A DNA stretch of 64,000 nt from Selaginella moellendorffii (lineage: Eukaryota; Plantae; Lycopodiophyta): assembly GCF_000143415.4 (NCBI RefSeq), contig NW_003314356.1, positions 372,001 to 436,000 of the forward strand, given 5' to 3'. The notes under the pieces were generated by a model. The model made no database searches. It saw only the letters and a program-made list of their open reading frames with translations, and was not told the origin of the DNA. Of the stretch, positions 13,816 to 60,242 are shown piece after piece. Every line of letters begins with the position of its first letter. Within the stretch, counting starts at the first letter, position 1. The translations under genes were made by a program, and so were the position numbers.

Positions 13816-13817
13816 CA

Positions 13818-13834
13818 TGGCAACCACAGTGGGA
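13818..13834 (+). promoter_or_regulatory. Primer binding site, tRNA-Arg(UCG) type
   Basis: TGGCAACCACAGTGGGA (TGGCGACCACAGTGGGA at 23263-23279) is complementary to the 3' end of plant tRNA-Arg(UCG) (...UCCCACUGUGGUCGCCA). The tRNA sequence is recalled, not searched. Confidence 0.75.
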
Positions 13835-14118
13835 TGGGTGTCACAGAATCTGCATTTTCTTTTTCTAGTTTTCTCTTTCATGCATGCTGAAAAATTCCAG
13901 AAAAGTCTCTTTTACTGATCAGTCATTTTGAGAAATTGGCAAGGAAAGCCGAAGACCTGCACAGAAGCCCAAGGAAGGAGCAGTGCAGAGAATTGGATCA
14001 GAGACATTTGCGATGGAGCATCACAAGCACCGTGATGAGCAGTTCCGATTGCGGAGTACCTGGCGGCAATGTGGAATGTTGTGTCTAGCAGTCCCCCTTA
14101 CACGAAGAATTATGAGGT

Positions 14119-19200: not shown

Positions 19201-22200
19201 CCTCTGCTCTTACTGCCTAAGACGGACAGTCAGGTAAGTCTGGGAGAGCCTCTACCAGCGATAGATGAAGAGGAGTCCGAGTTGGAAAAGGAGCAAGAGG
19301 AGGAAGAAGCCGAAGTAGAACCCTGGCATACGGAAGTACACTGGGAGGAATCAAGCAATGAAGACACTGGCGAAATGGAAGTTAAGATGAAACTGCGGGA
19401 TACGTACGGAAAACCAGAAAAGGAGTTCGATTGGCATTGGATCATGAGGACACTGCTGCACAAGTATGCACAACATCAAGTCAACATCAATCAGGAGATC
19501 ATGGAGTATGTGATCAGAGGATTCAACGTGGAGCAAAGGATGTTGTGTTTTGAAGGAAGAGAAACACCGGTGACCGAAGCGAAAATTTGAAAGGCGTTCG
19601 GCATTCCTCAGGTAGGAGGAGAAGTTCATCCTACATGAGAAATTCCAACTGACACCAAGTGGTTGGAACCATATTTATGGACGAAGAATCTGGGGAATAC
19701 AACCTGTTTGTCCTACGGCAAGAAGGTGTTGGCACCTGGATTCTGAAGATGGATAGTCACACTAGCACACGTGTTGGATTATGAGGATGGACTACAAGGA
19801 GTTAGACTGGAAGTGATGTGGATCTTTCACCACTTCCACAACGAATATCCTATTGATTGGGCGAGCATACTTTTAAAGCAGATGGTTAATACAGTGCAGC
19901 GGGCGCAAGAAGCGAGAGATATCGGGGGACGCATCCCGATCCAATCACAGTGGGGACACCTACTCTACACTATTATTACAATGGAGCCCAAATTAAGATG
20001 ATTAATTTCGCTGCATGGTGGCCGAGATATTAAGTCCCAATTATTTTCCTGTGGGCAACCAAAGTGGGACCTCAACCGTTGGCATGTGGAAGCAATGGTC
20101 AGGATGAATCGTCGTTTACGGGAGGAAAAGCCAAAAGAAGTTCCGACGGAGGAAAACGCAATTAGGGTTTCTAAGTTGGAGCCGACAGTTGCATTTTTGA
20201 CAGTGTTCACCATCAAAGAAAACGCAACCAGGATGATGGCAATCACAAGTTCTTCTCTCCTACCTCTGAAGGCGAAGAAGGCAAGGTGCGAGGGGAAGAA
20301 CACTGACAGTGCCTGGTTCAACGACTGCAAACTGGGAGGTAACTTCAAATTGCTCAGAGAAGGGTTGATCGGACCATCTCCGGAGGAAGAGCGGTTTTAC
20401 TTGCAGATAATGATGGCGATGGATCCAAGCAGGGGAACCATCTGGCTCTACGGTAAAGAGATCCTGTTGAATAACAAGTTCTTCAGCAAGGTGTTCGAGT
20501 TCCCCAACAAGGTGTATGAGATGGAGGAGCCGCTGTCGAAGATCTACAACGAGTATAGGCCATACCTGAAGGAGGGGACGACCTGGGAGGAACATCTTGC
20601 AAGGAGAGCGAAGACCAGGGGGCTGCAGCTATCTGAGTTCTGCGCCGAGGTGGTAGCAGTACTTCGCCCTCTTAGCGTGATCATGGGGTGCAGGAACAAC
20701 CCGAAGAGCGTCCCCGTCAATGTGCTGTGGGTGTTCATCGCAGCGGATCGGAATTGGTTCATGAACTGGGCTATGATTTTTTGGGGGTCATTTTTCTGAG
20801 TAGTTGAGACGGCAAGGAAGTTGATGATGAAGAAAAATGGTGGCGACACCATCCTCTACCCATTTCTGGCTCACATGTCTACATTCCTTGATCTGAGGGT
20901 TGGGGACTACTACAAGTTTCGGCCCTACGGAATGCTGACTGACATCCCGGATCATCGGACAACTATGGCGTTCCTCAAGCATGTGGAGACGGAGGAGGAT
21001 GGCCTGTTCCAACTTTAAAGGCGGGGGAACCCACAGACCGAGTGGTCATGGGGATTGAAGAGGAAGAGACGGATGCAGGTGAAGAAGATGGACCAGCGGC
21101 AGGATCGGGATGGGGTGGACTGTACATCGACACCTCGTCCAAGGAGGGAGTTCAGCTCTACTTCGACGAGACATCCGGTTCTGCGACCGGATACCCCTCC
21201 GCCAGCTGTGCGTCCGATTCCACATCAGATCATCCAGATCATTATGACACGTAAGCAGCAGCAGGCCCTAAACGGTAACCCATCAACGCCAACTCCAAGA
21301 ACGGTGTTGATGGACTGGGATTGCCCACGTCAGCAAGTAAATCAAGAAAGGCAACTCCCTATAAGTGCCCAAGCAGTTCACAGGGTGAGGATGGGAAAAG
21401 CACCAGCGGAGCCGAGGGCCAAGAAAGCGGGTGGCCGAGGAGCAGGCGGTTCAGCAGCAGGTGACTGCCCGCTACACCCCGAGGAGCTCACATCAAGGTA
21501 ATACCAGTCCACCCCGCTTCTGCAAACTCCCCAACTCCCCTACAGAGTTCTGCACCACCTTTTGAGATACCGGTAGTCGGAGCCACAGAGGTGATGGATA
21601 TGGAGCAAGAGCACCACCAGGAAGGACGGGAGGAGGAAGTTCCAGCAGACCCGTGGGGTGGGTTTGCTCAAGAACCGGAACTGGAGCCTGCCCAAGTATT
21701 GCTCCATCCAACCGACCCAACCGACCCAAATGCCGAAGAGGAGATGGGACGACATCAGGTGTTGGAGTGTGTACCACTGGCACCACTGCCGGAGAACAGA
21801 CAGCAGGAGGCTGTACCCGACGTGCGACCCATGGAGGTGGAGCGCCCATCGAGTCGGCAGGATGAGACGCGCAAGCGAGCACATTCCCCACCCCACAACG
21901 GCAAGGGTGAACACCGCGAACACCACGGTGATGGCTGAGAGGAACCACACCAAGAAGCTCGACCTTCTCATTGCCAACAGTACAAGGACACAGCGCAGAT
22001 CTTACTGACGCTGGCCCACGAAGAGGAGATCGGCCAGAAGTTGGAAGGAAGACTCTGTACGATGGAGGAGAAAGTGTCCAGTTCGAGGGGCATCTGATTG
22101 GAGTACAGAAGTTCATCGAAGAACACCACAAACTGCTCCTCACAGCCATCACCAATCTGTTGGAGTGCCTTCCTACCACCACGGATCTGCCTGAAGACGA

Positions 22201-22360
22201 GTGCAAGGAAGTGCGCCAACTCTGAGAGACCAATGCACAGTATGAGCAGTTTTTCAGCAACATGCCACGCCCTCCTGTTTGCACCAAGGGACACTGAGAG
22301 GGGGAATTCACCTGGTACAAGCTCACTTCTATCAGGTTTATCAAGTTCCTTTCTGCTCAA
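19200..22360 (+). pseudogene. Element A extra 3' coding region: two similar putative 'plant transposon protein'-like domains, an acidic/Pro-rich linker and a probable coiled coil
   Basis: ORF pieces at 18982, 19771, 20086 and 20821 are all in one frame with the integrase tail, separated only by TGA stops. Parallel motifs (..F.G.E..VT...I..AFG.P / ..LYGKEI.L....FSKVFEFP and IDWASIL / MNWAMIF). The domain name is an inference. Confidence 0.6.
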
Positions 22361-22497
22361 ACCTAAGAGAAATAAAGAAAACTATTTACATGAGAAAATT
22401 GCTTCATATAAAAATGAACAAAAAGTACAAAAGGAAGGCACATCGATCAAGCAATCGACACACTTCGAGGACAAAGTGTCATTTAAGTCTGGGAGCG

Positions 22498-23260
22498 TGA
22501 TAAAGGAAAATGTTGGATGGAAGGAATATTCGGCAGCACAAATTCAAACATCAAAATGCCACAAGTCCCAACCAGTTGGACTCAAAGTCCAACTGCCCAA
22601 GTTCCAACCCAACGACTCCAACTTCAGTTTCTCAGCAATCTCGGTTTGACACTCTACAGCAGCAACTCTACAACAGACTCAAACACCGGACGGGTACAAA
22701 TGACCCGGAAGCAGTTACCAGGAGCGGTTGCCAGATGACGACATCTGTACTGCAGACACAAACCCGAAAGGACCATGGCAACAAGCACGGATACGGTTGC
22801 CAAGGACTTAGTATAAATAGGCTAGCTGTGAGAGTGAGAATTTTATCCCATCTCTACTCTGCACAAAGGAAAGCTCTGTAAAACTTTTCTTCATCAACTG
22901 CTTGTGAGATTTGACTTCCTACTCTGTGTTCTGGGATCGACACCATTTAGTTTTCACTCAGTTTTACTTTCTGTTGTACCAATGCATTCACTTGTTCTGG
23001 GTTTTTGTTGATTCTGTGGCCTGTGCCATCCTTGCCCACCTTCAGTTCTGTTGACGACCAAGTTCTTAGTGCGGATTGAGGAGTTGTATGACCGGCCAAC
23101 CGTATAGCCTCTCTTTCTATCCTCGTCGGACTTGTAATCCAACTGGCGACCAAATACTCAACTGAGCCAACCATTTCGCAATTTCACCATTCCAACCCCT
23201 TTTCCCTTTTCCCCTTTGTTTCCTTCTTTACTCCATAAAACCCGTTTTTCCATGATAACA
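22498..23260 (+). repeat. Element A second LTR, followed by a PBS and ~50 bp of leader
   Basis: Direct repeat of 13045-13815. Similarity continues through the PBS to CATGCATGC (13887/23332). Confidence 0.9.
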
Positions 23261-23332
23261 CATGGCGACCACAGTGGGATGGTTGTCACAGAATTTACAT
23301 TTTCTTTTTTTAGTTTTCTCTTTCATGCATGC

Positions 23333-23667
23333 AGGTGTTGGGTGATGAGCTAACCACTGGGAAGTCCAAAACTAGAGTGAACATGGACAGACAAGTGGGG
23401 TAACTTGGTGAAATGTTTAAGAGCCAACTCTAGTTCCCCTGGGAGATCAAATGGTCGATGCTCCCAGTCCAAGTGTGGGTGGCACTACCTACTTAGATAC
23501 CTGGCGTGGCTCAACAGAACCTCGCTCTAAGCCTATGGATAGAGCACCCAAAGGCACCAAAGCAATCCTTTGGTGTTGTGACCAAGGATATGGTTATATG
23601 GTGAGGAAATCCTAAAGGACCGTGGGACTTAGTGATCGGGCCTATGGGCCTTGATCCAGTGGCAGTG
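23333..23667 (+). repeat. Middle part of the split E-type LTR
   Basis: Matches ~43190-43607 of the solo E LTR. Confidence 0.85.
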
Positions 23668-24826
23668 TGTAAGGAACCAACTCGCCGAAGTGTCATAGGC
23701 TAAAGGAGCCTTGAAAGCTTGACCAAAATGATAAAGAGTTCATCGGATGAGACCAAGTCTAAGATTGAGTCCAAGACCGACTCTAAGACCAAGATCGAGA
23801 TAGAGTCCAGAATCGAGTCCGAGACCGACTCGGAGACCAAGTTCGAGTCCGAGTTCGAGACCGAGCTCGAGACGGAGTTCAAGATCCGAAATCGAGTCCG
23901 AGACCGAGTCCGAGGTCGAGTCCGAGGTCGGGTCCGAGATCGGGTCCGAGATCGAGTCCGAGATCGAGTCCGAGACCGAATCCGAAGTCGGATCTGAGAT
24001 CAAGTCCGAGATCGAGCCAGAGACTAAGTCTGAGTACTAATACGGGTCAAGGGGTGAAAGCCCAAAGCGTGCGTCTCTTAGGGGGGGGGGGCTGTAGGGG
24101 GTTCCAAAAGTATAGTAGGGATAGTGAGGTCCAGGAACCAGTCTTGAAGGAACTCTCCAGTGGGGCTTCCAAACCGACTTGAGGTTGAGACTGGGGCCGA
24201 GGGGCCTTGGGTGGGAGTGAGCATGGGCTTGAGTGGTGCCGGAGGGGCCACCCAGGGAAGTGCTCAAGAGCAGCTCCCACTCCTGAAAGGGAAACCGACT
24301 GCGGTGCTCCTGGCTCATGTGGAGTGGTGCCCCACTTGAGTACCTTGTGGCTCATTGGTCCTCGCCCTTCCTAGGGGCTTGGGCCTTCCCTTCGGGATTC
24401 AAGTGGGGGGGTAGAGGTACCCATACCGGGCCGTTAGGCCACGGTGTTTCGCCCCGACGTCCCGAAGCAAGTGCTGCACCCAAGGCTTGGGATTTAGAGG
24501 GTCCCATGATCAAGTCTTGTGGTACCAAGGGGTGTTAGGAATCTGGAGGCTTGGTGTGCTTGGCTGCTTGTGCCTGCAGGGAGTGTAGCCGAACCTTAAG
24601 TTCAGTCTAACCCGGGGAGGGGGATTGGGAGTGATTTGGGAATCCGTGGATGGATAGCTAACACTCCGTCGCTCATGCAGTGAGTAGCTGAAAGCAAGTA
24701 GGACCAAGTAGGAGCTGGTACCATAGGCGAGAACCTTGGCGAGGGAACTTAGCACAAGCCAAGGCAGTGTTGGTTGGATAGAAGAGGTAAGCTGGCAAAT
24801 TGGAAAGGAAAAATTTGTGGCTTACA
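23668..24826 (+). repeat. Family-C chromovirus 5' LTR (1159 bp) with GAGTCC/GAGATC hexamer array
   Basis: TGTAAGG...GCTTACA followed by the iMet PBS TGGTATCGGAGC (24830-24841). Preceded by TSD CAGTG. Confidence 0.92.
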
Positions 24827-27800
24827 ATTTGGTATCGGAGCGTTTTCCTCAGTTCTAGCGAAGGATAGAGGCGGATTGCTGGGAGATGGCAAAGGCAGGG
24901 CGTAAGCGAACCCAGGTGGAGACGGAACCTCCGCCAGAGCTGGAGTCTTCGGTCGAACAAGAGGCTATGGATGAGGAATCCTTGCATGAGGAGGACTCCA
25001 GTGAGGAAACTTCCAAACAGGAGTCCGGTGGCAAGGTTCGATTGTCCAAGGCTCGATTGGACATTCTAGAAGGACAATTGGCACAGACCAATGCCCTGCT
25101 AGAGACTCTTGTGCGTAAGCTAAAGCGTGACGAGAAGTGGAAGAAAAAGTGAAAGACTGCGGATGCTAGCAGCGCAGAAGGTGTGGACCCTTCGGCAGAG
25201 ACTGAGGCAAAACCAGACAAGGTTGAACAGACTGAAGTGGAATTAGTCCCTCAGGCAGTTCCCAAGTACAAACCAAAGCCCCCACCGGTCTTCAAGGGAG
25301 TGAATATAAAGTGGTGGAGGATTGGTTTTACGATATGGAGGACTACTTCCGAGCGTTGCGATTACCGAGCTCGGAAAAGGTCCCATGTGCAAAACCATAC
25401 TTGGCAGATAATGCCAAGTCTTGGTGGAGAACGACAGAGGCCAACGAAGGACCGGTGGCCACTTGGGACATGATGAAGGTGAGGATCCACGCAACTTACG
25501 TTCCTCCAAATGCTACTCTGCATCTAAGGAGGTTGAAGCAGACCGGAACCATTCAGGAGTATGTGAATGGGTTTATGGCAAAGAGGATACTTGTCACGGA
25601 CATGGGGGATATGGATGCGTTCCATGCCTTCATATCAGGTTTGCAAACCTGGGCTCGCGGTGAAGTGATGCGGTGGAACCCAACCAACTACAAGGAAGCG
25701 TTGGATGCGGCCATCAAGGTGCATTTCAACGATAACCTGCGAAAGGGGAACACGACGGGGTCGGGATCCACGTTTAGCAAAGGGGCCAAACCAAGGGGAA
25801 CGTTTAGCATAGGGAAATTCAAGAAGAGTTTCTCTAAGAATGAGTCCTCGGGGTTCTAGAAAGGCAAATCCGGTGGCCAGCGAGCGAGTACGTGGGGGAG
25901 TCAAGCGAAAAGAGACAAACCCACAGATAAGAAGGTCAAGTCGTATAGCAGCGTGGGAAACAATGTATGCTACAACTGCGGTGAAGCGGGACACTTTTCG
26001 AGGGAATGTCCCTACCCAAAGAAGGCCAAAGCCAATATGGCAATCAAGTCGGGTGAAGTCCAAACTGAGGTATATGATCCAGTCCTTAACTAAAAGTTAC
26101 TCATAACATGAGAAACTTTGGTAGAGAGTCATTCGCGACATCTACTAGCCCTCCGAGGGAAGCTCGAAGGTAGCTTTGTTAACATCCTTATTGACACGGG
26201 TGCTTCGGATAATTTTGTGGCTGCAGACATAGTCCGGCAAGCCGAACTAACGGTGGAGCGACTAGGCGAACCAAGGACAATAGAGTTTGTTCAAGGTAGC
26301 CAAAGCACCGATGAGGTACTTTGACAAGCGAGAGTCAAAGTAGGGACATGGAAAGTGGACATGGATTTCACCGTGTTAGACATGGCGGGATTTGACGTGA
26401 TCTTCAGAATGGATTGGTTCAATCGGTTCGTGGTAGCCCTGCATGGACAAGGTAGGAACTTTGTGGTACTGGCAAATGCCTAAGGAAGAAGATCTAGGGT
26501 GGAGGCCCAGGATCTAAAGGTAGGGCAAAGTAAGGCCAAAGAATCCTGCTTAAACCTGGTGTCCATGAGAGGACAACTCACTAAAGGAACTAAGGCAGCA
26601 TTTTTGTGCTTATTCTCGGTGAAGAGTGACAAAAAGACAGGAACGGAAGAAGTACCTTTGGTGATCTAACGGGTGTTGGACCAATTCCAGGATACCATGC
26701 CGGAGGAGTTATCGGCGGGGTTGCCCCCCGCACGACCGATAGAACATAAGATTGAGCTGGTCGAGGGGACTTGTTCAATAGGTTGGGAAAGGCAAAATAC
26801 TTCTCAAGGATTGACCTAAGGTCAGGATACTACCAGATCAGGGTAGCTGAGGAAGATGTCGAGAAGACAACCTGTCGAACGAGGTATGGGAGCTTTGAGT
26901 TTCTGGTGATGCCCTTTGGGCTGTGCAATGCGCCGGCAACATTTTCGGCGTTGATGAACCACATCTTTGTACCCTATCTGGATCACTTCATGGTCGTCTA
27001 TATCGACGACATCCTGATCTATAGCGAGACGCTAGAGGAGCATGCCGAACACTTGGCGAAGGTGTTTGAGAAACTAAGGGAACACAAACTGTATGCTAAA
27101 GAGAGCAAATGTGACTTTGCTCAACAAGAGGTAAAGTTTCTCGGGCATGTGGTGGGCCAGGATGGGCTCAAGGTGGACCCGGAGAAGGTCCAAGCGATCC
27201 AGGAATGGGAGCAACCATCGAATGTACATGAGTTGAGGGCGTTCTTGGGGCTATGCAACTACTACCGAAATTTTATCAGACACTATTCGAGAGTAGCCCT
27301 GCCCTTAACAGACCAAACAGGAAAAGGGAAGATGGTATGGACAGCGGAATGCGAGGCGGCATTCGTCCACCTCAAAGGGAAGTTGAGGAAGGCTCCTGTG
27401 TTGGTATTACCAGACTTTGGTAAGGACTTTGAGGTAGAAACAGATGCTTCAGACTTCGCGTTGGGCGCAGTTTTGAAGCAAGACAAATATCTAGTAGCAT
27501 TCTTCTCGAAGAAGTTGGACAAGGCTCAACGGAAGTGGCCTGCCCACGAGAAGGAATTGTTTGCGGTGGTCAAGGCGCTCAAGGAGTGGCGACACTACCT
27601 TGGGAGACACTTCAAGGTTTACACGGACAATGTGGCAACGAAACACTTCTTGTCACAGCCCGACCTGAGAGGGAAACAAGGTTGCTGGGCCAATGCCTTG
27701 GCCGAGTTTGATTGTGAAATTCTGTACAAGCCTGGGAAAAGCAACATCGTGGCGGATGCACTAAGTCGAAAAGCGAGCTTGAGGTTGGCGATATCCAGCA

Positions 27801-29483
27801 CAACAACAACCTTCGGGGACAATGTGCGGACAGCATATGAGAACGATGGTCTAGCACAAGAAGTGTTGCTGAGGAATCTGGAGGCACAGGAAGCTCACCA
27901 GAGAGGTGAGCTGCCAACGGAAGAGAAAACGAGCTATGCGGAACGCAACAAACTCATCTATTACAAGCAAACGAGGGTGTATGTTTCAGAAGGGGAACTA
28001 AGGAAGGCAGCCTTAGAAGAGTGTCATGACGGACCTCTTGCGGGACACGGCAGAGTGCCCAAGACGATGGGCTTACTCAAGAGGAAGTACCATTGGCCAG
28101 ATATGGCTAAGGACGTCCAAGACTATGTAAAGACATGCCAACATGTCAACAGGTCAAAGCCGTGACTAAGGCTAGTGGGGGCTTGTTGCAAAGCATCCCA
28201 ATTCCACATCGTCTGTGGAAATGTCTTACGATGGACTTCATCACGGGACTTCCCCCAAACGAGGGGTTTGATGCGATATTCGTGGTGGTGGACCAATTTT
28301 CAAAAATGGCACATTTCATACCCACCACAACGGAAGTGGATGCGGAAGGTGTGGCGAAGGAAGGCTCCAGTGTTGGCATTACCAGATTTTGGTAAGGACT
28401 TTGAGGTAGACACGGATGCTTCGGACTTTGCGTTGGGCGCAGTTTTGAAGCAAGACAACCATCCAGTAGCATTCTTCTCGAAGAAGTTGGACAAGGCTCA
28501 ACGAAAGTAGCCTGCCCACGAGAAGGAATTGTTTGCGGTGGTCAAGGCGCTCAAGGAGTGGCGACACTACCTTGGGAGAAACTTCAAGGTTTACACGGAC
28601 AATGTGGCAACGAAACACTTCTTGTCACAGCCCGACCTGAGAGGGAAACAAGGTCGATGGGCCAATGCCTTGGCCGAGTTTGATTGCGAGATTTTGTACA
28701 AGCCTGGGAAGAGCAACATCATGGCGGATGCGCTAAGTTGAAAAGCGAGCTTGAGGTTGGCGATATCCAGCACAACAACAACCTTCGGGGACGATGTGTG
28801 GACAGCATATGAGAACGATGGTCTAGCACAAGAAGTGTTGCTGAGGAATCTGGAGGCACGGGAAGCTCACCAGAGAGGTGAGCTGCCAACGGAAGAGAAA
28901 ACGGGCTATGCGGAACGCAACAAACTCATCTATTACAAGCAAACGAGGGTGTATGTTTCAGAAGGGGAACTAAGGAAGGCAGCCTTAGAAGAGTGTCATG
29001 ACGGACCTCTTGCGGGACACGGCAGAGTGCCCAAGACGATGGGCTTACTCAAGAGGAAGTACCATTGGCCAGATATGGCTAAGGACGTCCAAGACTATGT
29101 AAAGACATGTCCAACATGTCAACAGGTCAAAGCCGTGACTAAGGCTAGTGGGGGCTTGTTGCAAAGCATCCCAATTCCACATCGTCTGTGGAAATGTCTT
29201 ACGATGGACTTCATCACGGGACTTCCCCCAAACGAGGGGTTTGATGCGATATTCGTGGTGGTGGACCAATTTTCAAAAATGGCACATTTCATACCCACCA
29301 CAACGGAAGTGGATGCGGAAGGTGTGGCGAAGCTGTTCTTCGAACAAGTGGTTCGAGTACGGGGAAGGCCGGAAGAGATCATCTCAGATCGAGATAAGAT
29401 CTTCACTAGTAAGTTCTGGAGGACTCTCCTGGAACAGTATCGCACCAAGTTGAAATTTAGCACAGCCTATCACCCACAGACAG

Positions 29484-29530
29484 GTATGGGGTATTAAGTC
29501 AAGTTTGGTGGCACTAACACTTCTTGACAG
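29484..29530 (+). other. Putative spliceosomal intron 1 (47 nt) in integrase core
   Basis: CAG|GTATGG...CACTAAC ACTTCTTGACAG|AC. Removal gives HPQT-D-GQTERVN and exact D(35)E spacing. An identical copy is at 56440-56486 (-). Confidence 0.85.
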
Positions 29531-29948
29531 ACGGACAAACGGAAAGGGTGAATAGGCAGCTGGAGGATTATTTGTGATGCTATGTCTCGGGAGACCAGAC
29601 CAATTGGGTAAGTCATTTGGGCCTTGCGGAAATGTGTTATAACAACTCACCACATTTGAGTATTGGGGTGAGTCCATGGGAAGTCATCAATGGGCGAGCT
29701 ATTGAAGGTCCTGTGGAACTCGGCGTGGCCGAGTATCATGGAGAGTTACCGGCAGTGGAGGCATTCACGGCGGAAAGACTCAACATTTGGAATCTAGTGA
29801 GGGATTCCTTGGAACGAGCTCAACAAAGGCAAACCAAGTACGCAAACTTAAAGCACCGGGATGTAGAGTTCAAAGCTGGGGAGAAGGTGTGGCTGAACAC
29901 CAAGAACCTCAGGCTACCAAGTGGGATCAGCCGAAAGTTGACCCAAAG

Positions 29949-30000
29949 GTAAAAATGCATGTATTCCTATAAATGAATTGATCTTGAGTTCCTTAAGCAG
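29949..30000 (+). other. Putative spliceosomal intron 2 (52 nt) before the GPY/F motif
   Basis: AAG|GTAAAA...CCTTAAGCAG|GT, AT-rich. Removal gives KLTQRFAGPYKI. The copy at 55970-56021 (-) ends in TAG. Confidence 0.85.
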
Positions 30001-30209
30001 GTTCGCGGGGCCTTACAAGATTGAGGCACGAATCGGTAAAGTGGCTTACCGACTCCGACTTCCTCGAGAGATGGGAAAGATGCATCCCATGTTCCACGTG
30101 AACTTACTCAAGCCGTATTTTGAGGATCTGCTTTGCAAGGACCAAGTAAGACCTTTACCTGAGGTTATCCAAGGGGAAGAGGAATACGAAGTCAAGGCCA
30201 TCCTCAATG

Positions 30210-30949
30210 CGGGGGGGGGCTGCAGGGGGTTCCAAAAGTAGGGATAGTGAGGTCTAGGAACCAGTTTTGAAGGGACTCTCCAGTGGGGCTCCCAAACCGA
30301 CTTGAGGTTGGGATTGGGATCGAGGGGCCTTGGGTGGGAGTGAGCATGGACTTGGTTGGTGCCAGAGGGGCCATCCAAGGAAGTGCTCAAGAGCAGCTCC
30401 CACTCCCGAAAGGGAAACCGATTGCAGTGCTCCCGGCTCATGTGGAGTGGTGCCCCACTTGAGTACCATGCGGCTCATTGGTCCTCGCCCTTCCTAGGGG
30501 CTTGGGCCTTCCTTTGAGATGGAAGTGGGGGGGTAGAGGTACCCACACCGGGCCATTAGGCCACGGTGTTTCGCCCCGACATCCCGAAGCAAGTGCTGCA
30601 CCCAAGGCTTGGGATTTAGAGGGTCCCATGATCAAGTCTTGTTGTGCCAAGGGGTGTTAGAAACCTGGAGGCTTGGTGTGCTTGGCTGCTTGTGCCTGCG
30701 GGGAGTGTAGCTGAACCTTAAGTCCAGTCTAACCCGGGGAGGGGGATTGGGAGAGAATTGGGAATCCGTGGATGGATGGCCAACGCTCCGTTGCTTGTGC
30801 AGTGAGTAGCTGAAAGCAAGTAGGACCAAGTAGGAGTTGGTACCATAGGCGAGAACCTTGGCGAGGGAACTTCGCAAAAGCCAAGGCAATGTCGGACGGA
30901 TAAACGAGGTAAGCTAGCAAATTGGAAAGCAAAAAATTTATGGCTTACA
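30210..30949 (+). repeat. Family-C 3' LTR, 5'-truncated, belonging to the second C insertion
   Basis: Matches ~24081-24826 with noticeably more substitutions than 54026-55185 does. Ends GCTTACA. Confidence 0.88.
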
Positions 30950-33931
30950 TATTGAGCATACACCTCCAGCTCTTGAGAACTTTGCAAATGAGATGCGGCA
31001 GCTGAAGGAGATCATACTTTAGCAACAATCACAACATGATAAGCTGCTCTAGGAGCTGGTGGAGTCCAGGAAAGAGGCCATTGCAGCTCAGGAACGCAGA
31101 TTTAAGTCCCATTGGTGCACTCACTGCGAGATGAACACACACAACACACAGCACTGCTTCAAGCTTCACCTAGATCTTTGGCCTCCATCTTTTCAACGTG
31201 TCCAACAACGTCCCTTTGCGGACAACTCCACATCGTCTCGGGGTCCAAAGACATATCAGGAGCAGTTGGAGCAACAAGCAATTGAGGCAACCCCTTCGTC
31301 AAGCAAAGGCAAGGCACAAGCCTCATCGGTCAACACGATTTTGGTAGCCGAGGAACTCTATAGACAATAGTAGCAAACCGCAGCCACTTGAGCCCAAGCG
31401 AAGAAGAAAGCAGCAGCTCAGCCTGCCATAGATCCCCCAGTGTCGGTTAAGAGTGGATCTCTGTTGGCACCAGATCTAGTGACACAGAGGGTGGCTTGTA
31501 AACTCCTCTTCAAGTCACTACTGTCTTCTCTTTCTGAGATCTCACCAATAGCTATTCCTATTCTGGAGTTGGTTCTTCAACAGCTAGTTCACACTCTCGT
31601 CACCTTTTTGCTCCAAGACATGTTGTGTTTTGTCCCAGGATTCAGCCAGCGTTTAGAGGAGTTTGCACGGTTAGGAACACTAGAGAGCACTCTCAAGAGG
31701 ACTCCTCAAGAGATGCACATTGTCGACATGATAAGATATGGTGGAGATCCTAGCCCATTCTTCATCCTGGTGCAAATTGGTACTTCCTCTTCTAGGATGG
31801 ATGCTTTGGTTGACTCCGGTTCTGGAAACAACATTATCTCTCTTGAAGCTGCCCTTTTAACACAGCTACAAATCACTAAGAGCTCCTCCATTGTGCTCAA
31901 GACCTTTGCCAACCACACCATTCCTCCAGCGGGCATTTGCTGTGGTGTCAAGGTCTCAGTGCAGGGTGTTGTTTCTGAGGTAGATTTCCTCGTGGTTGAT
32001 TACCAACGTCTTGGAACATTCTTTTTCAAGGACTCTATCATCCTTGGCGATGCATCTTAGTGATGAGGACAAGCTTCATGCACATGACTTAGAGGTTCTT
32101 GCCTTGGAAGAACAGTGATAATCCACATGAGAACATCTCCTTCGAGGCAAGCTGAAGATTAAGTCAGTCATTGATCATCAACGGTCTGCCGAACCATTCA
32201 AAGATGGCAATCTTGTTGTACTCAAGGAGTTTACACCACCTTCGAAGTTCTCCCCTCGCTGGACCAGCCCCTACTTTGTCCAGCAATACGTCGGAGGTGG
32301 AGTATATGTGCTAGTTGATGTTGATGGATGTGAACTCCCACATGCTCACAACCACTCTCATCTCAAACGCTTCATTCGGTGAGACATTCCTCTTCTCTTC
32401 TTTTTCTTTTTCTTTTTCTTCCTTTCTTTCACTTTACTTTCTTGGCTACTTTTCTTACTTTCAGAGGGTGTTTCTCCATTGGACCATGGCCCATGCCTTG
32501 GATTTTGTGCTCAGGCTGCATTGCTATTTGTATGGAGGTCCCTTGCTTGGCTTAGTCTATATTCCAGGTTCTTTGGTCCTTCCCTTAACATTACTATACC
32601 CCACACATTTCCCACACTCATTCTATATCATCTACACTCACAGTTCCATCACCCATCACTTCTAGCAGCGTTGGCCGCACTTATCTCTAGATGCCCATTT
32701 TGCATCTTTCATTCTTTCACCATCATTCACATCTCTATTTGAGGTTACATTTACACCATACCATGGACACACATACATGCACCAACAACAAAAGATGCCA
32801 CCTAATTTGGACGTGCCATTTCCAAGATATCCTTCTGACCATTTGTCGACAACGCACTAGCTTTTCTAGAGCAACTTTATTCCAACCAAGTGAGCTTGTT
32901 CACTCAAGGCACCTAGGTGGATCTTTAAGCAAGGCCACAGAAGCCAAAAGCACTTTCTTCTGCTCCAACACTTAGTGGACACATGCCACCTTCCTTTACC
33001 GGCAACCTAACAACTACAACGTCCTTTTCAGCTGTTGTCTTCTTCAGTCCGACACATTAGACCATTGGCCTAACACTTTAAGAGATGGCCACCATTTTGG
33101 TGCTCCACCATATCACTCCACCATATCGGTACTGGAGCAAGCGCAGGAGTAGGAGCGAGAGCAGGTGGTTACTGGTTACAGGTCCCCAGTACGTCTCCTT
33201 CCATTTTCACCTTTATTATTCTTATTTAAGAGATGGCCTCCTTTTCAAAGTGCCACCACCATCTCGGCACTCCACCATCTCACTCCATCTTTCATCATTT
33301 CCACACTTACCACCCTTGGGCAACACATCCCCTCTTCTACCTCTTTTTCTTTTTCGATTTCAGCCAAACCTTGGAGCATACCAGAAGTCAACAAGAGGCT
33401 ACATTTGCATATTACACTTTCCTAAGCCAAAATCCAGGTACGGGTTAAGTTCTTTGGGTACTCACTCTTTTTCCTCTATTTTCCTCCTCTTTTCACAATT
33501 TTTCTGCACTTTTTCTTCAACTTCAAGATCCAATTTGACTACAGCGTTTCCCACCAGGTTTTCCTCCCTCTTTCCAAACTTCACACCTACCTCTTTGCTT
33601 TCTTTTTCCACTTTGCTTTCTAGAGTTTCTACTATTTCACGCAGCTACCAGCACATGGCTTCAGTAGCAGAGGTACTCTACACTCTTCAGAGGGTTCTCG
33701 TGCGTCTGGAGCTAGTGCAATCCACCATGGTCGCATGTTAGGGCATGGCCACCGAGAGAGTGAGAGAGAGAGAAAGAATATTCTGGTCCTTAGAATATTC
33801 CCCATCTTCCTTGTATAAAACCCTTGCCTCACAAGGGCAAGGGGGGGGGGGGGGGGGATTTTGTGGAGAGCATTGGAACATTTCTCATGTTTGAGTGAGC
33901 GTTGGGGGAAGTGCCCCTCCTTCCCCCAACA
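30950..33931 (+). mobile_element. Element D, 3' half: gag Zn-knuckle, protease, integrase C-terminal remnant (RT/RH absent) and short LTR 33736-33931
   Basis: CTHCEMNTHNTQHC; ALVDSGSGNNII; KFSPRWTSPYFV at ~32245-32280. LTR TGTTAGGG...CCCCCAACA is followed by CATG. Confidence 0.75.
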
Positions 33932-35190
33932 CATGACTGTGCTTGCCAACACTGCCACTTGGTCAGGGCTAGAAGGCCTACCCACTAAGTCCCATTGACA
34001 TTTGGGACTTCCTTGCCACGTGAATATATCCTTAGTCACTACACAAAAGGATTTCTGCTCTTCTTTTTCTCAAAGCAAGACTCCAATAAGCCACACTAGG
34101 CAAGTAGTTAATGCCACCCACTTTTGGATTGGGAGCATCAACCATTTGATCTCGTAAGGTAGTTAAAGCTGCCTCTTGAACACTTCACCTAAGTACTCTA
34201 TTTGTCCGTCTGTGCTCACTTTAGCTTTGGGCTCCTCAGTTCTTATATTATCACCCACTAAGTGGGTATAGCCTTCCTTGGTCACACAAGCCTTTGTTAG
34301 CTAAAATGATTCCATTGGAATCCTCCCCTTACTATACTTTTGGAGTTTATCAAACCTACCAAGGTCTGGGAAATGATCACTATAGGCTTTCATCCTCGGC
34401 CTTGGAATTGGACTCAGACTTGGACTCAGACTCAGACTTGGTCTCAATCTCAATTTCAGTCCCAGACTTAGTCTCGGTCCGAGTGTCTGTCTTGGTCCCA
34501 ATCTCGGTCTTGGTCCCAGTCCAGTCTTGGTCCCCATCTCATACTCCTTCTTGGACTTCATCTTGGACTCCACCTCAAACTCCATCTCAGACTCCATCTC
34601 AGACTCCATCTTAGACTCCATCTCAGATTCAATCTCAGTCTCAGTCTCAGTCTTGGCCTTACTCTCAATATCGGTCTTCATCTCAGTCTCAGTCCCAGTC
34701 CCAGTCTTGGTCCCCACCTTGAAGTCCTTCTCAGACTCCTTCTCAGACTCCATCTTAGATTCCATCTTAGACTCCTTCTTAGACTCCATCTCAAACTCCT
34801 TCTCAAACTCCTTAGACTCCATCTCGAACTCCTTCTTAGACTCCTTCTTAGACTCCATCTCGAACTCCATCTTAGATTCCTTCTTGACTCCTTCTCGAAC
34901 TCTTTCTCAGACTCAGATTCAACACTTCCATGTGTCACAACAGTTGCCATATGTCAGTGCTTCTCGTGTCCCTTTTCTAGAGGCTTGCTTATTGATCTCT
35001 TCATGCTTGTTCCTTGAGCCTTCATTAGGAGTTCCACTCCCACTCTCGACTTTTTGAGTTAGAGATTTTAGTCCAAATGTGTTATGCTCATTTGGCTTTT
35101 CAGCCACTACCACGTGACACCCCCTTAGCTCCACTTTGGGCTTAGAGATTTGTGTCTTAGACTTCCCTTGGAGGGGTAGTAGATGTTACA
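33932..35190 (-). repeat. E-subfamily LTR, 5' part (host of element D, continues at 61908-62300 on +), with degenerate hexamer array
   Basis: Homologous to E LTR blocks. Starts TGTAACATC on the minus strand. (GACTCCATCTCA)n-type array at ~34410-34915. Confidence 0.75.
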
Positions 35191-36234
35191 AATGATTTTC
35201 TACCAAAGTTGCTCGTGTAATAAGTAACTTTGATTTAGGAATTGGATCATGTACCTCAGTTTAAACTTTACCCAACTTAATAGCTATATTGACTCTGACC
35301 TTCTTAAAGTAAGGACATTTTTTAAAAAAGTGTCTCGCTTCACTGTAGTTGTAGTATATATTATTTCCCACGCCATTAGTAAAGTTGGCCTTTTTATCAG
35401 TGGGTATGTCCCTTTTTGCCTGATTCCCCATGTACTTGCTCACTAGCCACTAGATCTGCCTTTCCAAAACTTTGAGGACTCATTCTTAGAGAAACTCTTC
35501 TGAAATTTCTTTTTGCCATATGTCCCTCTTGGTTTGGTTCCTTTGCTAAATGTGGACCCCAACCCTGTCGTGTTCCCCTTTTGCAAATTATTATTAAAAT
35601 ACACTTTAATAGCTATAACCAATACTTCCTTATAGTTGGTCGGGTTTCAACCCATCACATCACCTCAAGCCCTAGTTTGTAAGACTAATATGAAGGCATG
35701 GATTGGTATGAATGCATTCATATCACCCATATCTGTGAAAAGGATCCTCTTGGCTATAAACCCATTCACATACTTTTTAATAGTTCCTGTTTTCTTCAAC
35801 CTACTCAACTCATCCCTTAGGCGTAGAGTAGCATTTAGAGAAACATAAGTTGTGTGCATTCTCACCTTCATCACTTCCCAAGTGGCCACCATTCCTTTAT
35901 TGGCCTCTATTGTTCTCCACCAAAACTTAGTGTTATCTGCTAAGTATGGTTTTAGATATGGGACCTTTTCCAAATTTGGTAACTGCAATGCTTGAAAATA
36001 ATGGACTAATTCTACTTCTTTTTTTTCAACCTTGTTCAGTTTTACCTCGGTCTCTTCAAAATGGTCCATGCCATCTATATTGCCAACATTTGCAGTTTTT
36101 TTGCCTTTTCTCCTACTTCTCATCACACTTTGACTTGTGTACAACGTTCTCTAGTAGGGCATTGGTCTGTGCCAATTATCCTTCTACAACGTCCAATCAA
36201 ACTTTAAACAACTAAACCTCCCTATTGAACTTCT
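35191..36234 (-). pseudogene. Older degraded family-C gag fragment (its 5' end, PBS and LTR end lie at 44529-44845)
   Basis: ORF 35665-36144 is homologous to C gag (KPYLADNTKFWWRT). PBS remnant at ~44705-44716. Confidence 0.8.
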
Positions 36235-54020: not shown

Positions 54021-54025
54021 CACTG

Positions 54026-55185
54026 TGTAAGCCACAAATTTTTCCTTTCCAATTTGCCAGCTTACCTCGTCTATCCGACCAACACTGCCTTGGCTTGTGC
54101 TAAGTTCCCTCGCCAAGGTTCTCGCTTATGGTACCAGCTCCTACTTGGTCCTACTTGCTTTCAGCTACTCACTGCATGAGCAACAGAGTGTTAGCTATCC
54201 ATCCACGGATTCCCAAATCACTCCCAATCCCCCTCCCCGGGTTAGACTGAACTTAAGGTTCGGCTACACTCCCCGCAGGCACAAGCAGCCAAGCACACCA
54301 AGCCTCCAGATTCCTAACACCCCTTGGTACCACAAGACTTGATCATGGGACCCTCTAAATCCCAAGCCTTGGGTGCAGCACTTGCTTCGGGACGTCGGGG
54401 CGAAACACCGTGGCCTAACGGCCCGGTATGGGTACCTCTACCCCCCCACTTGAATCCCGAAGGGAAGGCCCAAGCCCCTAGGAAGGGCGAGGACCAATGA
54501 GCCACAAGGTACTCAAGTGGGGCACCACTCCACATGAGCCAGGAGCACCGCAGTCGGTTTCCCTTTCGGGAGTGGGAGCTGCTCTTGAACACTTCCCTGG
54601 GTGGCCCCTCCGGCACGACTCAAGCCTATGCTCACTCCCACCCAAGGCCCCTCAGCCCCAGTCTCAACCTCAAGTCGGTTTGGAAGCCCCACTGGAGAGT
54701 TCCTTCAAGACTGGTTCCTGGACCTCACTATCCCTACTATACTTTTGGAACCCCCTGCAGCCCCCCCCCCCCTGAGAGACGCACGCTTTGGGCTTTCACC
54801 CCTTGACCCGTATTAGTACTCGGACTTAGTCTCTGGCTCGATCTCGGACTCGATCTCGGATCTGACTTCGGATTCGGTCTCGGACTTGATCTCGGACTCG
54901 ATCTCGGACTTGATCTCGGACCCGACCTCGGACTCGACCTCGGACTTGGTCTCGGACCCGATTTCGGATCTCGGACTCCGTCTCAAGCTCGGTCTCGAAT
55001 TCGGACTCGAACTCGGTCTCCGAGTCGGTCTCAAACTCGATTCCGGACTCTATCTCGAACTCGGTCTTAGAGTCGGTCTTGGACTCGATCTTAGACTTGG
55101 TCTCATCCGATGAACTCTTTATCATTTTGGTCAAGCTTTCGGGGTTCCTTTAGCCTACGACACTTAGGCAAGTTGGTTCCTTACA
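54026..55185 (-). repeat. Family-C 3' LTR, the true partner of 23668-24826
   Basis: Near-identical to 23668-24826. PPT TATGGGTGGTGGAGT at 55186-55200. Followed on the minus strand by TSD CAGTG. Confidence 0.92.
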
Positions 55186-55969
55186 ACTCCACCACCCATA
55201 GAAGAAGTTCGATGCCCACATCGAACGTCTCTTTTTTATCCTATGACTTGTTGACCATGTCTCCGGGGGCATCCCCCCACTTAGCGGTATGCCTAAGTTA
55301 GCTTCCCCGGCCAAGAGCCCATGACAACGGAATATAGGTGTCCTTATAATCCTCACCTCACCACGCCCTAGTATGGGGTCGGGACTTGAACCCAGCCTTG
55401 CTTTACTAGGGGGTTGGGACTCGAACCCAACCTCCTTAGAATACGTCTACAGATTCGACATCCCCGCAGGGAGTTGGGGGTAGCTCCCTACGCCTGGTCG
55501 ACCTAGCTAACCCATGCTAATTAGTTTACCTTCGGCGCGCCTTCGGGTCCCAACATATGCCATTGCTCAACTTCACAAATTAATACTTTGATTGAACTTT
55601 GCATAAGTACATAGAGTTCTGCCTTGCAGAAATTCCTCCACTAGATCTTGCGCATTCGCTAGATTCTCCTCCGGTTCCCATGTTGCTTCGCAGTGTGGAA
55701 ATCCTTTCCACTTCATATGGAACTCTCTCACCTCGCGTCCTTGTCGCTTGCTCTTGCGCGCATTGAGGATGGCCTCGACTTCGTATTCCTCTTCCTCTTG
55801 GATAACCTCAGGTAAAGGTCTTACTTGGTCCTTGCAAAGCAGATCCTCAAAATACGGCTTGAGTAAGTTCACGTGGAACACGGGATGCATCTTTCCCATC
55901 TCTTGAGGAAGTCAGAGTCAGTAAGCCACTTTACCGATTCGAGCCTCAATTTCGTAAGGCCCCGCGAAC

Positions 55970-56021
55970 CTACTTAAGGAACTCAAGATCAATTCATTTA
56001 CAGGAATACATGCATTTTTAC
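55970..56021 (-). other. Intron 2 in the second C copy
   Basis: 52 nt, GTAAAA...CCTTAAGTAG. Confidence 0.85.
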
Positions 56022-56439
56022 CTTTGGGTCAACTTTCGGCTGATCCCACTCAGTAGCCTAAGGTTCTTGGTGTTCAGCCACACCTTCTTCCCAGCTTGGA
56101 ACTCTACATCCCGGCGCTTTTGGTTCGTGTACTTAGTTTGCCTTTGTTGAGCTCGTTCCAAGGAATCCCTCACTAGATTCCAAATGTTGAGTCTTTCCGC
56201 TGTGAATGCCTCCACTACGGGTAACTCTCCATGATACTCGGCCACGCCGAGTTCCACAGGACCTTCAATAGCTCGCCCATTGATGACTTCCCATGGACTC
56301 ACCCCAATACTCGAATGTGGTGAGTTGTTATAACACATTTCCGCAAGGCCCAAATGACTTACCCAATTGGTCTGGTCTCCCGAGACATAGCATCACAAAT
56401 AATCCTCCAGCTGCCTATTCACCCTTTCCGTTTGTCCGT

Positions 56440-56486
56440 CTGTCAAGAAGTGTTAGTGCCACCAAACTTGACTTAATACCCCATAC
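56440..56486 (-). other. Intron 1 in the second C copy
   Basis: Same 47-nt GTATGG...CTAAC...GACAG sequence. Confidence 0.85.
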
Positions 56487-59400
56487 CTGTCTGTGGGTGG
56501 TAGGCTGTGCTAAATTTCAACTTGGTGCGATACTGTTCCAGGAGAGTCCTCCAGAACTTACTAGTGAAGATCTTATCTCGATCTGAGATGATCTCTTCCG
56601 GCCTTCCCCGTACTCGAACCACTTGTTCGAAGAACAGCTTCGCCACACCTTCCGCATCCACTTCCGTTGTGGTGGGTATGAAATGTGCCATTTTTGAAAA
56701 TTGGTCCACCACCACGAATATCGCATCAAACCCCTCGTTTGGGGGAAGTCCCGTGATGAAGTCCATCGTAAGACATTTCCACAGACGATGTGGAATTGGG
56801 ATGCTTTGCAACAAGCCCCCACTAGCCTTAGTCACGGCTTTGACCTGTTGACATGTTGGACATGTCTTTACATAGTCTTGGACGTCCTTAGCCATATCTG
56901 GCCAATGGTACTTCCTCTTGAGTAAGCCCATCGTCTTGGGCACTCCGCCGTGTCCCGCAAGAGGTCCGTCATGACACTCTTCTAAGGCTGCCTTCCTTAG
57001 TTCCCCTTCTGAAACATACACCCTCGTTTGCTTGTAATAGATGAGTTTGTTGCGTTCCGCATAGCCCGTTTTCTCTTCCGTTGGCAGCTCACCTCTCTGG
57101 TGAGCTTCCCGTGCCTCCAGATTCCTCAGCAACACTTCTTGTGCTAGACCATCGTTCTCATATGCTGTCCACACATCGTCCCCGAAGGTTGTTGTTGTGC
57201 TGGATATCGCCAACCTCAAGCTCGCTTTTCAACTTAGCGCATCCGCCACGATGTTGCTCTTCCCAGGCTTGTACAAAATCTCGCAATCAAACTCGGCCAA
57301 GGCATTGGCCCATCGACCTTGTTTCCCTCTCAGGTCGGGCTGTGACAAGAAGTGTTTCGTTGCCACATTGTCCGTGTAAACCTTGAAGTTTCTCCCAAGG
57401 TAGTGTCGCCACTCCTTGAGCGCCTTGACCACCGCAAACAATTCCTTCTCGTGGGCAGGCCACTTTCGTTGAGCCTTGTCCAACTTCTTCGAGAAGAATG
57501 CTACTAGATATTTGTCTTGCTTCAAAACTGCGCCCAACGCAAAGTCCGAAGCATCCGTGTCTACCTCAAAGTCCTTACCAAAATCTGGTAATGCCAACAC
57601 TGGAGCCTTCCTCAACTTCCCTTTGAGGTGGACGAATGCCGCCTCGCATTCTGCTGTCCATACCATCTTCCCTTTTCCTGTTTGGTCCGTGAAGGGTAGT
57701 GCTACTCTCGAATAGTGTCTGATAAACTTTCGATAGTAGTTGCATAGCCCCAAGAACGCCCTCAACTCATGTACATTCGATGGTCGCTCCCATTCCTGGA
57801 TCGCTTGGACCTTTTCCGGGTCCACCTTGAGCCCGTCCTAGCCCACCACATGCCCGAGAAACTTTACCTCTTGTTGAGCAAAGTCACATTTGCTCTCTTT
57901 AGCATACAGTTTGTGTTCCCTTAGTTTCTCAAACACCTTCGCCAAGTGTTCGGCATGCTCCTCTAGCGTCTCGCTATAGATCAGGATGTCGTCGATATAG
58001 ACGACCACGAAGTGATCCAGATAGGGTACAAAGATGTGGTTCATTAGCACCAAAAACGTGGCCGGCGCATTGCATAGCCCAAAGGGCATCACCAGAAACT
58101 CAAAGCTCCCATACCTCGTTCGACAGGTTGTCTTCTCGACATCTTCCTCGGCTACCCTGATCTGGTAGTATCCTGACTTTAAGTCAATCCTCGAGAAGTA
58201 TTTTGCCTTTCCCAACCTATCGAACAGGTCCTCAATTCTTGGCAAAGGGTACTTGTTTTTCTTTGTATACTTGTTGAGCAACCGGTAGTCTATGCACATG
58301 CGCATAGAATCATCTTTGTTTTTCACAAATAACACCGGCGCCCCATACGGCGACTTGCTCAACCTAACATACCCTTTGTCCACCAACTCCTCTAGTTGGC
58401 ACTTGAGCTCCTTGAGTTCTTTTTCGTTCAAACGATAGGGTGGACGAACCACCGCCTCAGCACCCTCGACCAGCTCAATCTTATGTTCTATCGGTCGTGT
58501 GGGGGGCAACCCCGCCGGTAGCTCCTCCGGCATGGTATCCTGGAATTGGTCCAACACCCGCTGGATCACCAAAGGTACTTCTTCCTTTCCTATCTTTTTG
58601 TCACTCTTCACCGAGAGTAAGCAGAAAAAGGCTGCCTTAGTTCCTTTGGTGAGTTGTCCTCTCGTGGACACCAGGTTTAAGCAGGAATCTTTGGCCTTGC
58701 TTTGCCCTACTTTTAGATCCTGGGCCTCCACCCTAGATCTTCTTCCTTGGGCATTCGCCAGTACCACAAGGTTCCTACCTTGTCCATGCATGGCTACCAC
58801 GAACCGATTAAATCAATCCATCCCAAAGATCATGTCAAATCCCGCCATGTCCAACACGGTGAAATCCATGTCTACTTTCCATGTCCCTACTTCGACTCTC
58901 GCTTGTCGAAGTACCTCATCGGTGCTTTGGCTACCTTGAACAAACTCTATTGTCCTTGGTTCGCCTAGTCGCTCCACCGTTAGTTCGGCTTGCCGGACTA
59001 TGTCTGCAGCCACAAAATTATCCGAAGCACCCGTGTCAATAAGGATGTTAACAAAGCTACCTTCGAGCTTCCCTCGGAGGGCTAGTAGATGTCGCGAATG
59101 ACTCTCTACCAAAGTTTCTCATGTTATGAGTAACTTTGAATTAGGGACTGGATCACATACCTCAGTTTGGACTTCACCCGACTTGATTGCCATATTGGCT
59201 TTGGCCTTCTTCGGGTAGGGACATTCCCTCGAAAAGTGTCCCGCTTCACCGCAGTTGTAACATACGTTGTTTCCCACGCTGCTATACGACTTGACCTTCT
59301 TATCCGTGAGTTTGTCTTTTTTCGCTTGACTCCCCCACGTAGTCGCTCACTGGCCACCGGATTTGCCTTTCCGGAACCCCGAGGACTCATTCTTAGAGAA

Positions 59401-60242
59401 ACTCTTCTTGAATTTCCCCCTGCTATACGTTTCCCTTGGTTTGGCCCCTTTGCTAAACGTGATCCCGACCCCGTCGTGTTCCCCTTTTGCAGGTTATCGT
59501 TGAAATGCACCTTGATGGCCGCATCCAACGCTTCCTTGTAGTTGGTCGGGTTCCACCGCATCACCTCGCCGCGAGCCCAGGTTTGCAAACCTGATATGAA
59601 GGCATGGAACGCATCCATATCCCCCATGTCCGTGACCAGTATCCTCTTTGCCATGAACCCATTCACATATTCTTGGATGGTTCCAGTCTGCTTCAGCCTA
59701 CTCAACTCATCTCTCAGATGCAGAGTGGCATTCGGAGGAACGTATGTTGTGCGGATCCTCGCCTTCATCATGTCCCAAGTGGCCACCGGTCCTTCATTGG
59801 CCTCTGTCGTTCTCCACCAAGACTTGGCATTATCTGCTAAGTATGGTTTTGCACATGGGACCTTCTTCGAGCTCGGTAATCGCAACGCTCGGAAGTAGTC
59901 CTCCATATCGTAAAACCAATCCTCCACCACCTTATAGTAATTCACTCCCTTGAAGACCGGTGGGGGCTTTGGTTTGTACTTGGGAACTGCTTGAGGGACT
60001 GATTCTACTTCGGTCTATTCGACCTTGTCTGGTTTTGCCTCAGTCCCTGCCGAAGGGTCCGCACCTTCTGCGCTGCCAGCATCCGCAGTCTTTCTCTTTT
60101 TCTTCCGCTTCTCGTCACGGTTTAGCTTGCGTACGAGAGTCTCCAGCAGGGCATTGGTCTATGCCAACTGTCCTTCTAGCACGTCCAATCGAGGCTTGGA
60201 CGACCGAACCTCGCCACCGGACTCCTGTTTGGAAGTTTCCTC

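Follow-up and report, generated by a model that had tools for sequence, protein, structure and literature searches.

Elements that lose an intron when they transpose supply the classic evidence for movement through RNA, and an LTR retrotransposon with apparent introns in its integrase gene poses the question of which of its RNAs is translated and which is copied. This question is raised by a locus of Selaginella moellendorffii, analyzed as a 64,000-nt stretch of contig NW_003314356.1 (positions 372,001 to 436,000 of the forward strand; hereafter, the window). The locus harbors a Ty3/gypsy chromovirus with two likely introns interrupting its integrase gene, and on the evidence assembled here it is probable that the integrase is made from spliced RNA and that the unspliced RNA is the form that is copied.

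Two copies of the element were found, copy 1 at 23668-30949 (plus strand) and copy 2 at 54026-60242 (minus strand), with a mutual identity of 94-98%. Their features are given below, with the candidate introns numbered.

23668..24826, plus strand: 5′ LTR of copy 1, 1159 bp, TG..CA ends, with a tandem array of 12-mers and a run of 11 G at 24081
24830..24841, plus strand: primer binding site of the plant initiator tRNA-Met type, assigned by sequence
24886..26069, plus strand: gag with a CCHC zinc knuckle, counted from its first ATG up to the donor of intron 3
26070..26226, plus strand: candidate intron 3 (157 nt, GT..AG), coding when retained, with the protease DTG motif inside
26227..29483, plus strand: remaining protease, reverse transcriptase (RT), RNase H, and integrase H2C2 and core as far as ..STAYHPQT
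29484..29530, plus strand: likely intron 1 (47 nt, phase 1), separating the second catalytic D from the catalytic E
29531..29948, plus strand: exon B, encoding the catalytic E and the helices of the integrase C-terminus
29949..30000, plus strand: likely intron 2 (52 nt, phase 2), directly 5′ of the GPY/F motif
30001..30211, plus strand: exon C, encoding the GPY/F (SH3_Tf2-1) module and the first part of the chromodomain
30211..30949, plus strand: 3′ LTR remnant of copy 1, 92.5% identical to its own 5′ LTR
54026..55185, minus strand: 3′ LTR of copy 2, 1160 bp
55186..60242, minus strand: internal region of copy 2, with its 5′ end and the 5′ LTR missing
55573..55969, minus strand: exon C of copy 2, in which the chromodomain is complete
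55970..56021, minus strand: likely intron 2 of copy 2, skipped exactly by a contig of public run X1
56440..56486, minus strand: likely intron 1 of copy 2, skipped exactly by an X1 contig and by one read of public run X15
59004..59160, minus strand: candidate intron 3 of copy 2, skipped exactly by an X1 contig

Pfam searches identified gag, protease, RT, RNase H, integrase H2C2 and core, and SH3_Tf2-1 (E 5e-15) domains, as well as a chromodomain that is complete in copy 2 only (Chromo, E 8e-16; Chromo box FHMKWKG). The domain order gag-PR-RT-RH-IN is of the Ty3/gypsy type, and the nearest solved relative is the Ty3 Gag-Pol structure (7q5b, E 1.5e-32). Other hallmarks of this group are also present, namely, TG..CA LTRs, a primer binding site, a purine-rich tract (at about 55187-55199, before the 3′ LTR of copy 2), and a 5-bp target duplication. 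The primer binding site was assigned by its apparent match to the end of the initiator tRNA-Met. A scan of the LTR for a canonical TATA pair or TATA[AT]A found neither. Both copies are decayed. In copy 1, gag is disrupted by stops and small deletions, the RT carries a 232-nt deletion, a 972-nt tandem duplication (27386-28359 and 28358-29332) repeats the RNase H-integrase N-terminus, and the chromodomain is truncated at 30211 by a deletion reaching into the 3′ LTR. Copy 2 contains several premature stops and a 1-nt deletion in gag, and the middle exon (exon B) has one premature stop in both copies.

The five bases to the left of the 5′ LTR of copy 1 (23663-23667) are identical to those to the right of the 3′ LTR of copy 2 (54021-54025), and the two flanks fuse, with a five-base overlap, into a sequence matching four uninterrupted copies of another LTR. 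Since the flanks share the 5-bp duplication and join, they point to a single insertion site whose two halves were separated by an inversion or a mis-join; judging by the sequence, the roughly 23 kb between the inverted copies (30950-54025) look to have been inverted by ectopic recombination, or else mis-joined in the assembly. The 972-nt duplication and a near-identical tract at 28510-29656 may belong to the same event. This 1147-nt tract, which contains intron 1, has 3 differing sites between the copies, and the two copies therefore count as one witness for intron 1. The part containing intron 2 differs by 4.7%. A 174-nt repeat (98%) is shared by the right flank of copy 1 (31363-31536) and the broken 5′ end of copy 2 (60243-60416), and a weak aspartyl-protease match lies at 31392-32060.

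Another, only distantly related Ty3/gypsy element occupies about 13100-23330 of the window. It has long LTRs, gag, RT, and an integrase zinc finger; a deletion near 18940 seems to have taken most of its integrase core, and pol is separated from the 3′ LTR by about 3 kb of additional ORFs with no Pfam match. An A-rich, strongly decayed relative of it (60% in RT-RNase H) lies at about 2270-8500, behind an LTR with a canonical Met primer binding site at about 2270. Degenerate 6/12/23-mer arrays of the GAGTCC-GAGATC type, often with a G-rich tract behind them, occur in several LTR families. No tRNA genes were found in the window, and no host genes among the 37 window ORFs scanned against Pfam.

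23749-24034, 34401-34914, 37250-37349, 42417-43043, 44157-44299, and 54819-55097: tandem arrays in LTRs

The original prediction held that the integrase frame is interrupted by GT..AG inserts of 47 nt (29484-29530) and 52 nt (29949-30000), each shifting the frame and containing a stop. The coordinates were confirmed in the sequence, as were the frame shifts and stops upon reading on in the upstream frame, with the first in-frame stop four codons into intron 1. Intron 1 runs from GTATGG to TTGACAG, and intron 2 from GTAAAA to AAGCAG. With intron 1 removed, a count across the exons (31+1+3) gave the predicted spacing of 35 residues from the second catalytic D, in ISDRD, to the E of ERVN. Removal of intron 2 places the GPY/F module in frame with the chromodomain, as had been proposed, although the chromodomain of copy 1 is cut and only that of copy 2 is whole; these two hallmarks of chromoviruses are in frame only with both integrase introns removed. 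The splice signals claimed for intron 1 were borne out for the GTATG donor and the CTAAC branch motif, which ends 12 nt short of the intron end; its pyrimidine tract is short. Intron 2 has a weak branch-like word, TTGAT, 18 nt from its end. Both inserts are T-rich (T 0.32/0.35, compared with 0.21-0.23 in the exons) and lower in GC than the exons, and the probability that both would have GT and AG ends by chance is about 0.0007, an estimate that allows all registers permitted by the shared flanking bases. Copy 2 contains both inserts as well (56440-56486 and 55970-56021, minus strand), with 0/47 differences from copy 1 in intron 1 and 2/52 in intron 2, as counted in two partly non-independent copies. 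With their GT..AG ends, T-rich composition, and a branch motif that is clear in intron 1 and weak in intron 2, the inserts have features of U2 introns, and they are likely to be spliceosomal introns. Short introns are in keeping with S. moellendorffii as host, according to a passage of PMC3680112.

Four public runs were compared with copy 2, one consisting of contigs (X1) and three of raw RNA-Seq reads (X15, X16, and X17; about 12% of each raw run was read). The RNA nature of X1 (25.8 million letters in 70,015 records) is a guess; it was taken as RNA because of its size, its three canonical joints, and a skip that destroys the protease. Three X1 contigs cover 28 of 30 bins of copy 2 and skip exactly 52, 47, and 157 nt, with long sides at the joints; the skipped segments are bounded by CT..AC on the plus strand, which is GT..AG on the strand of the element. 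None of the three contigs keeps any insert. Their 4-5% divergence from copy 2 shows that they derive from another family member, and they are free of the premature stops that the window copies have in exons B and C. Twelve raw reads fell on copy 2 (10 from X15, 2 from X16, and 0 from X17, which provides no test). One of them, from X15, the RNA-Seq of another study, carries the 47-nt joint with a shorter side of 46 nt. Both junctions foreseen for the integrase were accordingly seen in X1 contigs, and the first also in a raw RNA-Seq read; among the 12 raw reads listed, none carries the joint of intron 2 or 3, for which the X1 contigs are the source. In copy 2, the chromodomain stop is followed by roughly 380 nt before the 3′ LTR begins (55200-55570, minus strand), and this segment is matched by X15 reads and by no X1 contig.

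The 157-nt skip, which did not figure in the original prediction, defines a third GT..AG segment at the gag/protease border, beginning directly after the gag zinc knuckle. When kept, it is in frame with both gag and pol. Its removal brings a stop one codon past the joint, producing a Gag of about 401 aa and losing the protease active site. By analogy with the elements discussed below, intron 3 would be an alternative intron that yields a Gag-only RNA. Its joint and those of the integrase introns lie on separate X1 contigs, and none of the three contigs retains it. Both window copies have a stop within intron 3, which is likely a product of decay, because a diverged relative lacks it:

35162..36219, minus strand: diverged relative (75-78%) comprising gag, the intron 3 donor, and the first part of intron 3

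This relative has no stop where copies 1 and 2 have theirs, in agreement with the single ORF published for SM1-Galahad (see below), and is itself interrupted within intron 3 by another sequence. A fusion of gag and pol through a 55-57-nt intron at the end of gag was also considered and rejected: gag and protease share a frame, the observed splice is 157 nt, and the relative is free of stops there while the published ORF is continuous.

Purifying selection on the exons, another expectation of the original prediction, was examined at sites where both window copies agree with each other and differ from X1, among the 40 of 188 differences listed. In exons B and C, 15 of 20 such differences are synonymous in the spliced frames, compared with an expected fraction of 0.34 for random transitions (P=2e-4); the wrong frames give 2/20 and 5/20. 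Differences private to copy 2, within the same 40 of 188, are mostly nonsynonymous (3 of 11 synonymous). The synonymous excess indicates that the sequence behind intron 1 was kept coding in frames that are joined only by splicing.

The element is likely SM1-Galahad of S. moellendorffii, a name arrived at by matching numbers rather than by sequence alignment. Passages of the paper of Novikov et al. (2012, PMC3350952) describe SM1-Galahad as a chromovirus related to the Galadriel clade, about 7.5 kb long, with LTRs of 1076/1146 containing poly-G and a Met primer binding site. Its ORF of 3885 bp (1295 aa) ends in the integrase core and lacks a chromodomain, and behind it follow two short ORFs of 316 and 309 bp (the figures for the short ORFs are inconsistent, with 309 bp and 113 aa), the chromodomain sitting in a detached short ORF. 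The consensus was drawn from several of hundreds of copies that are 95% alike, with “no intact copy”, and the LTRs of the exemplar are only 90.2% alike. A sister family, SM2-Galahad, has a single ORF of 1577 aa and hundreds of copies (PMC3350952, in the same passages). The window element measures 7552 bp by added coordinates, with LTRs of 1159/1160 bp and a run of 11 G. The frame that opens with the ATG at 24886 runs for exactly 1295 codons before it meets the intron 1 stop, which implies that introns 1 and 3 are both present in the published consensus. The short downstream ORFs, counted from ATG to stop, are 321 nt and 318/327 nt, a rough match to 316/309, and the detached chromodomain ORF fits intron 2, as far as the sequence tells. 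The computed spliced frame is 1562 aa, near the 1577 aa of SM2-Galahad. The two elements thus agree in length, LTR size, poly-G, Met primer binding site, domain order, the 1295 aa ORF, and the detached chromodomain; they differ in that PMC3350952 treats the breaks as separate ORFs, while the three splice joints are new here. Neither “intron” nor “splic” occurs in the main text of PMC3350952, which was the only paper found by a full-text literature search for the name SM1-Galahad. This is likely a known family whose unusual gene structure went unrecognised.

The published consensus also bears on the original proposal that unspliced RNA is the copied form, and lends it support, since a multi-copy consensus ORF ends exactly at the intron 1 stop. 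Because that consensus keeps the introns, the intron-bearing RNA is likely the main template for copying. The companion proposal, that active integrase comes from a spliced mRNA, finds support in the X1 joints, the single raw read, and the constraint on the downstream exons.

The same observations could be read differently if an intronless master subfamily, or SM2-Galahad, supplied the integrase, with the intron-bearing branch being non-autonomous and X1 representing intronless DNA. The 4-5% distance of X1 from the window copies and its freedom from their premature stops would suit such a master, the unbroken SM2-Galahad ORF with its hundreds of copies (PMC3350952, in part) offers a source, and selection may have acted on the X1 lineage alone. 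However, X1 also skips the 157-nt segment with the protease active site, which would be indispensable in the DNA of a master. No copy seen by the 2012 authors was intact, and the consensus they published terminates within intron 1 (PMC3350952, passages cited above); moreover, inserts in a dead branch would hardly be two precise, frame-restoring GT..AG units, given the chance estimate above. We consider this explanation unlikely.

Alternatively, the introns may be spliced but sorting may be loose, such that some spliced RNA is copied, intronless and partly spliced copies occur, and the intron-bearing majority reflects a past burst or weak splicing. An intron placed in a yeast Ty element was lost on transposition (PMC12786077, in part), which means that exclusion of spliced RNA is not a default property of LTR elements, and a sample of two copies examined here leaves room for intronless ones. 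Against this, the spliced form alone was assembled in X1, and splicing is thus not weak; furthermore, intron 2 was kept in lineages 4.7% apart, and the multi-copy consensus keeps intron 1, which makes loose sorting a distinctly doubtful account. It is highly improbable that the inserts are ordinary indels of dead copies with chance GT..AG ends and that X1 is DNA lacking them, since the guessed RNA nature of X1 and the many other lesions of the window copies are outweighed by three independent GT..AG-bounded skips, intron-like composition, a branch motif, a joint in a genuine RNA-Seq read, and a published consensus interrupted at the same point (PMC3350952, in part).

In the preferred reading, with integrase from spliced RNA and the unspliced RNA copied, one transcription unit would give rise to three RNAs. 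In the first, intron 3 would be spliced, by the joint seen in X1, to encode the Gag of about 401 aa. The second would have introns 1 and 2 spliced, by joints that were both seen, and would presumably combine this with retention of intron 3; the Gag-Pol encoded by it would measure about 1562 aa and include D,D(35)E, GPY/F, and the chromodomain, and this RNA may be the sole source of integrase. The third, unspliced, would be the copied genome and, judging by the genomic copies, would yield 1295 aa without the catalytic E if it were translated. Integrase would then act in trans, on cDNA made from a different RNA molecule. By analogy with BARE1 and its two start sites, the second RNA would most likely be kept from particles by a division into a pool of capped, spliced RNA that is translated and a pool of uncapped, unspliced RNA that is packaged. 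Such a split of pools would permit the gain of introns in pol, but never their loss. With somewhat less assurance than for the basic reading, we favor an autonomous element that gained true introns in its integrase core and kept them through hundreds of retrotranspositions, running on a three-state splicing code with the Pol messenger strictly barred from reverse transcription.

Relatives of the element were examined at both intron sites. Among 81 metagenomic gypsy loci that were fetched, 42 span site 1 and 38 span site 2. At site 1, 39 of the 42 have no extra base, and the other three differ by -1, -26, and -4997; at site 2, the differences range from -9 to +15 nt, with none near 52. Metagenome relatives reach up to 65% in RT, and none contains the inserts. 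Homologous proteins continue directly from site 1 to the catalytic E in 187 of 240 cases; the others stop short of the site (24), end near it (14), or differ (15). None of the 14 that end within 12 residues of site 1 has a tail resembling that encoded by intron 1, and these lineages thus give no sign of the intron. The nearest named proteins in these searches are 36-54% identical, with none above 54%, viral contigs contain one relative (45%), and atlas matches are to streptophyte RT clusters only. Short repeated bases border the integrase introns, 5 nt at intron 1, where the same 5 bases precede the insert and end it, and 4 nt at intron 2, as would be expected from the sequence for intron gain at AG/G-like sites. 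No match longer than 11-12 nt that could indicate the source of the inserts was found elsewhere in the window or in the fetched loci.

Several uses follow from this gene structure. A high-copy family with obligatory integrase introns would be a built-in reporter for the separation of translated and copied RNA, and the count of intron-bearing versus intronless copies would gauge RNA sorting across evolutionary time. Where ORF-based annotation has recorded a family as having no intact copy, the genes may in fact be whole once spliced. The element also offers two recent intron gains for study, neither of which is shared by the sister family or by any of the relatives examined that cover the sites.

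The original prediction knew of no obligatory intron inside a gypsy integrase core, and a full-text search, with Repbase and subscription journals outside its scope, found no precedent in any LTR-retrotransposon integrase, nor do the passages of PMC13148404 and PMC5014426 contain one. In the portion of the REXdb paper covered, the Ogre intron is the only one named (PMC6317226), and passages of a 2025 review describe plant LTR retrotransposons as generally intronless, with Ogre and Evd as exceptions (PMC12786077). Arabidopsis gypsy elements show no conserved splicing, according to passages of the Evd paper (PMC5580714).

Intron 3 has close counterparts. Evd (ATCOPIA93), BARE1, and Drosophila copia produce a Gag-only RNA through an intron at the gag/protease border, with a frameshift, a stop just past the joint, and loss of the protease, and BARE1 separates its translated and packaged RNA pools (PMC5580714, PMC3735527, both in part). 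These are Ty1/copia elements, however, in which the whole Gag-Pol can be read from the unspliced RNA (same passages), whereas the unspliced RNA of the window element lacks the coding capacity for active integrase. Penelope-like elements also have introns that survive retrotransposition, but they use a non-LTR mechanism without an integrase, and their ORFs are mostly uninterrupted (PMC8557442, in part). In foamy viruses, Pol functions are likewise provided by a spliced RNA distinct from the genomic one (PMC5014426, in part); the splice takes gag off the pol RNA, however, and pol itself is not known to contain introns. A further parallel is Ogre, a Ty3/gypsy element of the Tat lineage, in which the full polyprotein needs splicing and the genome keeps the intron, a single one located between the gag-protease and RT domains (PMC6317226, PMC3735527, PMC12786077, all in part). 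The window element, in contrast, has two short, frame-shifting likely introns within the integrase, one of them in the catalytic core, and a third that would have to be kept on the same RNA.
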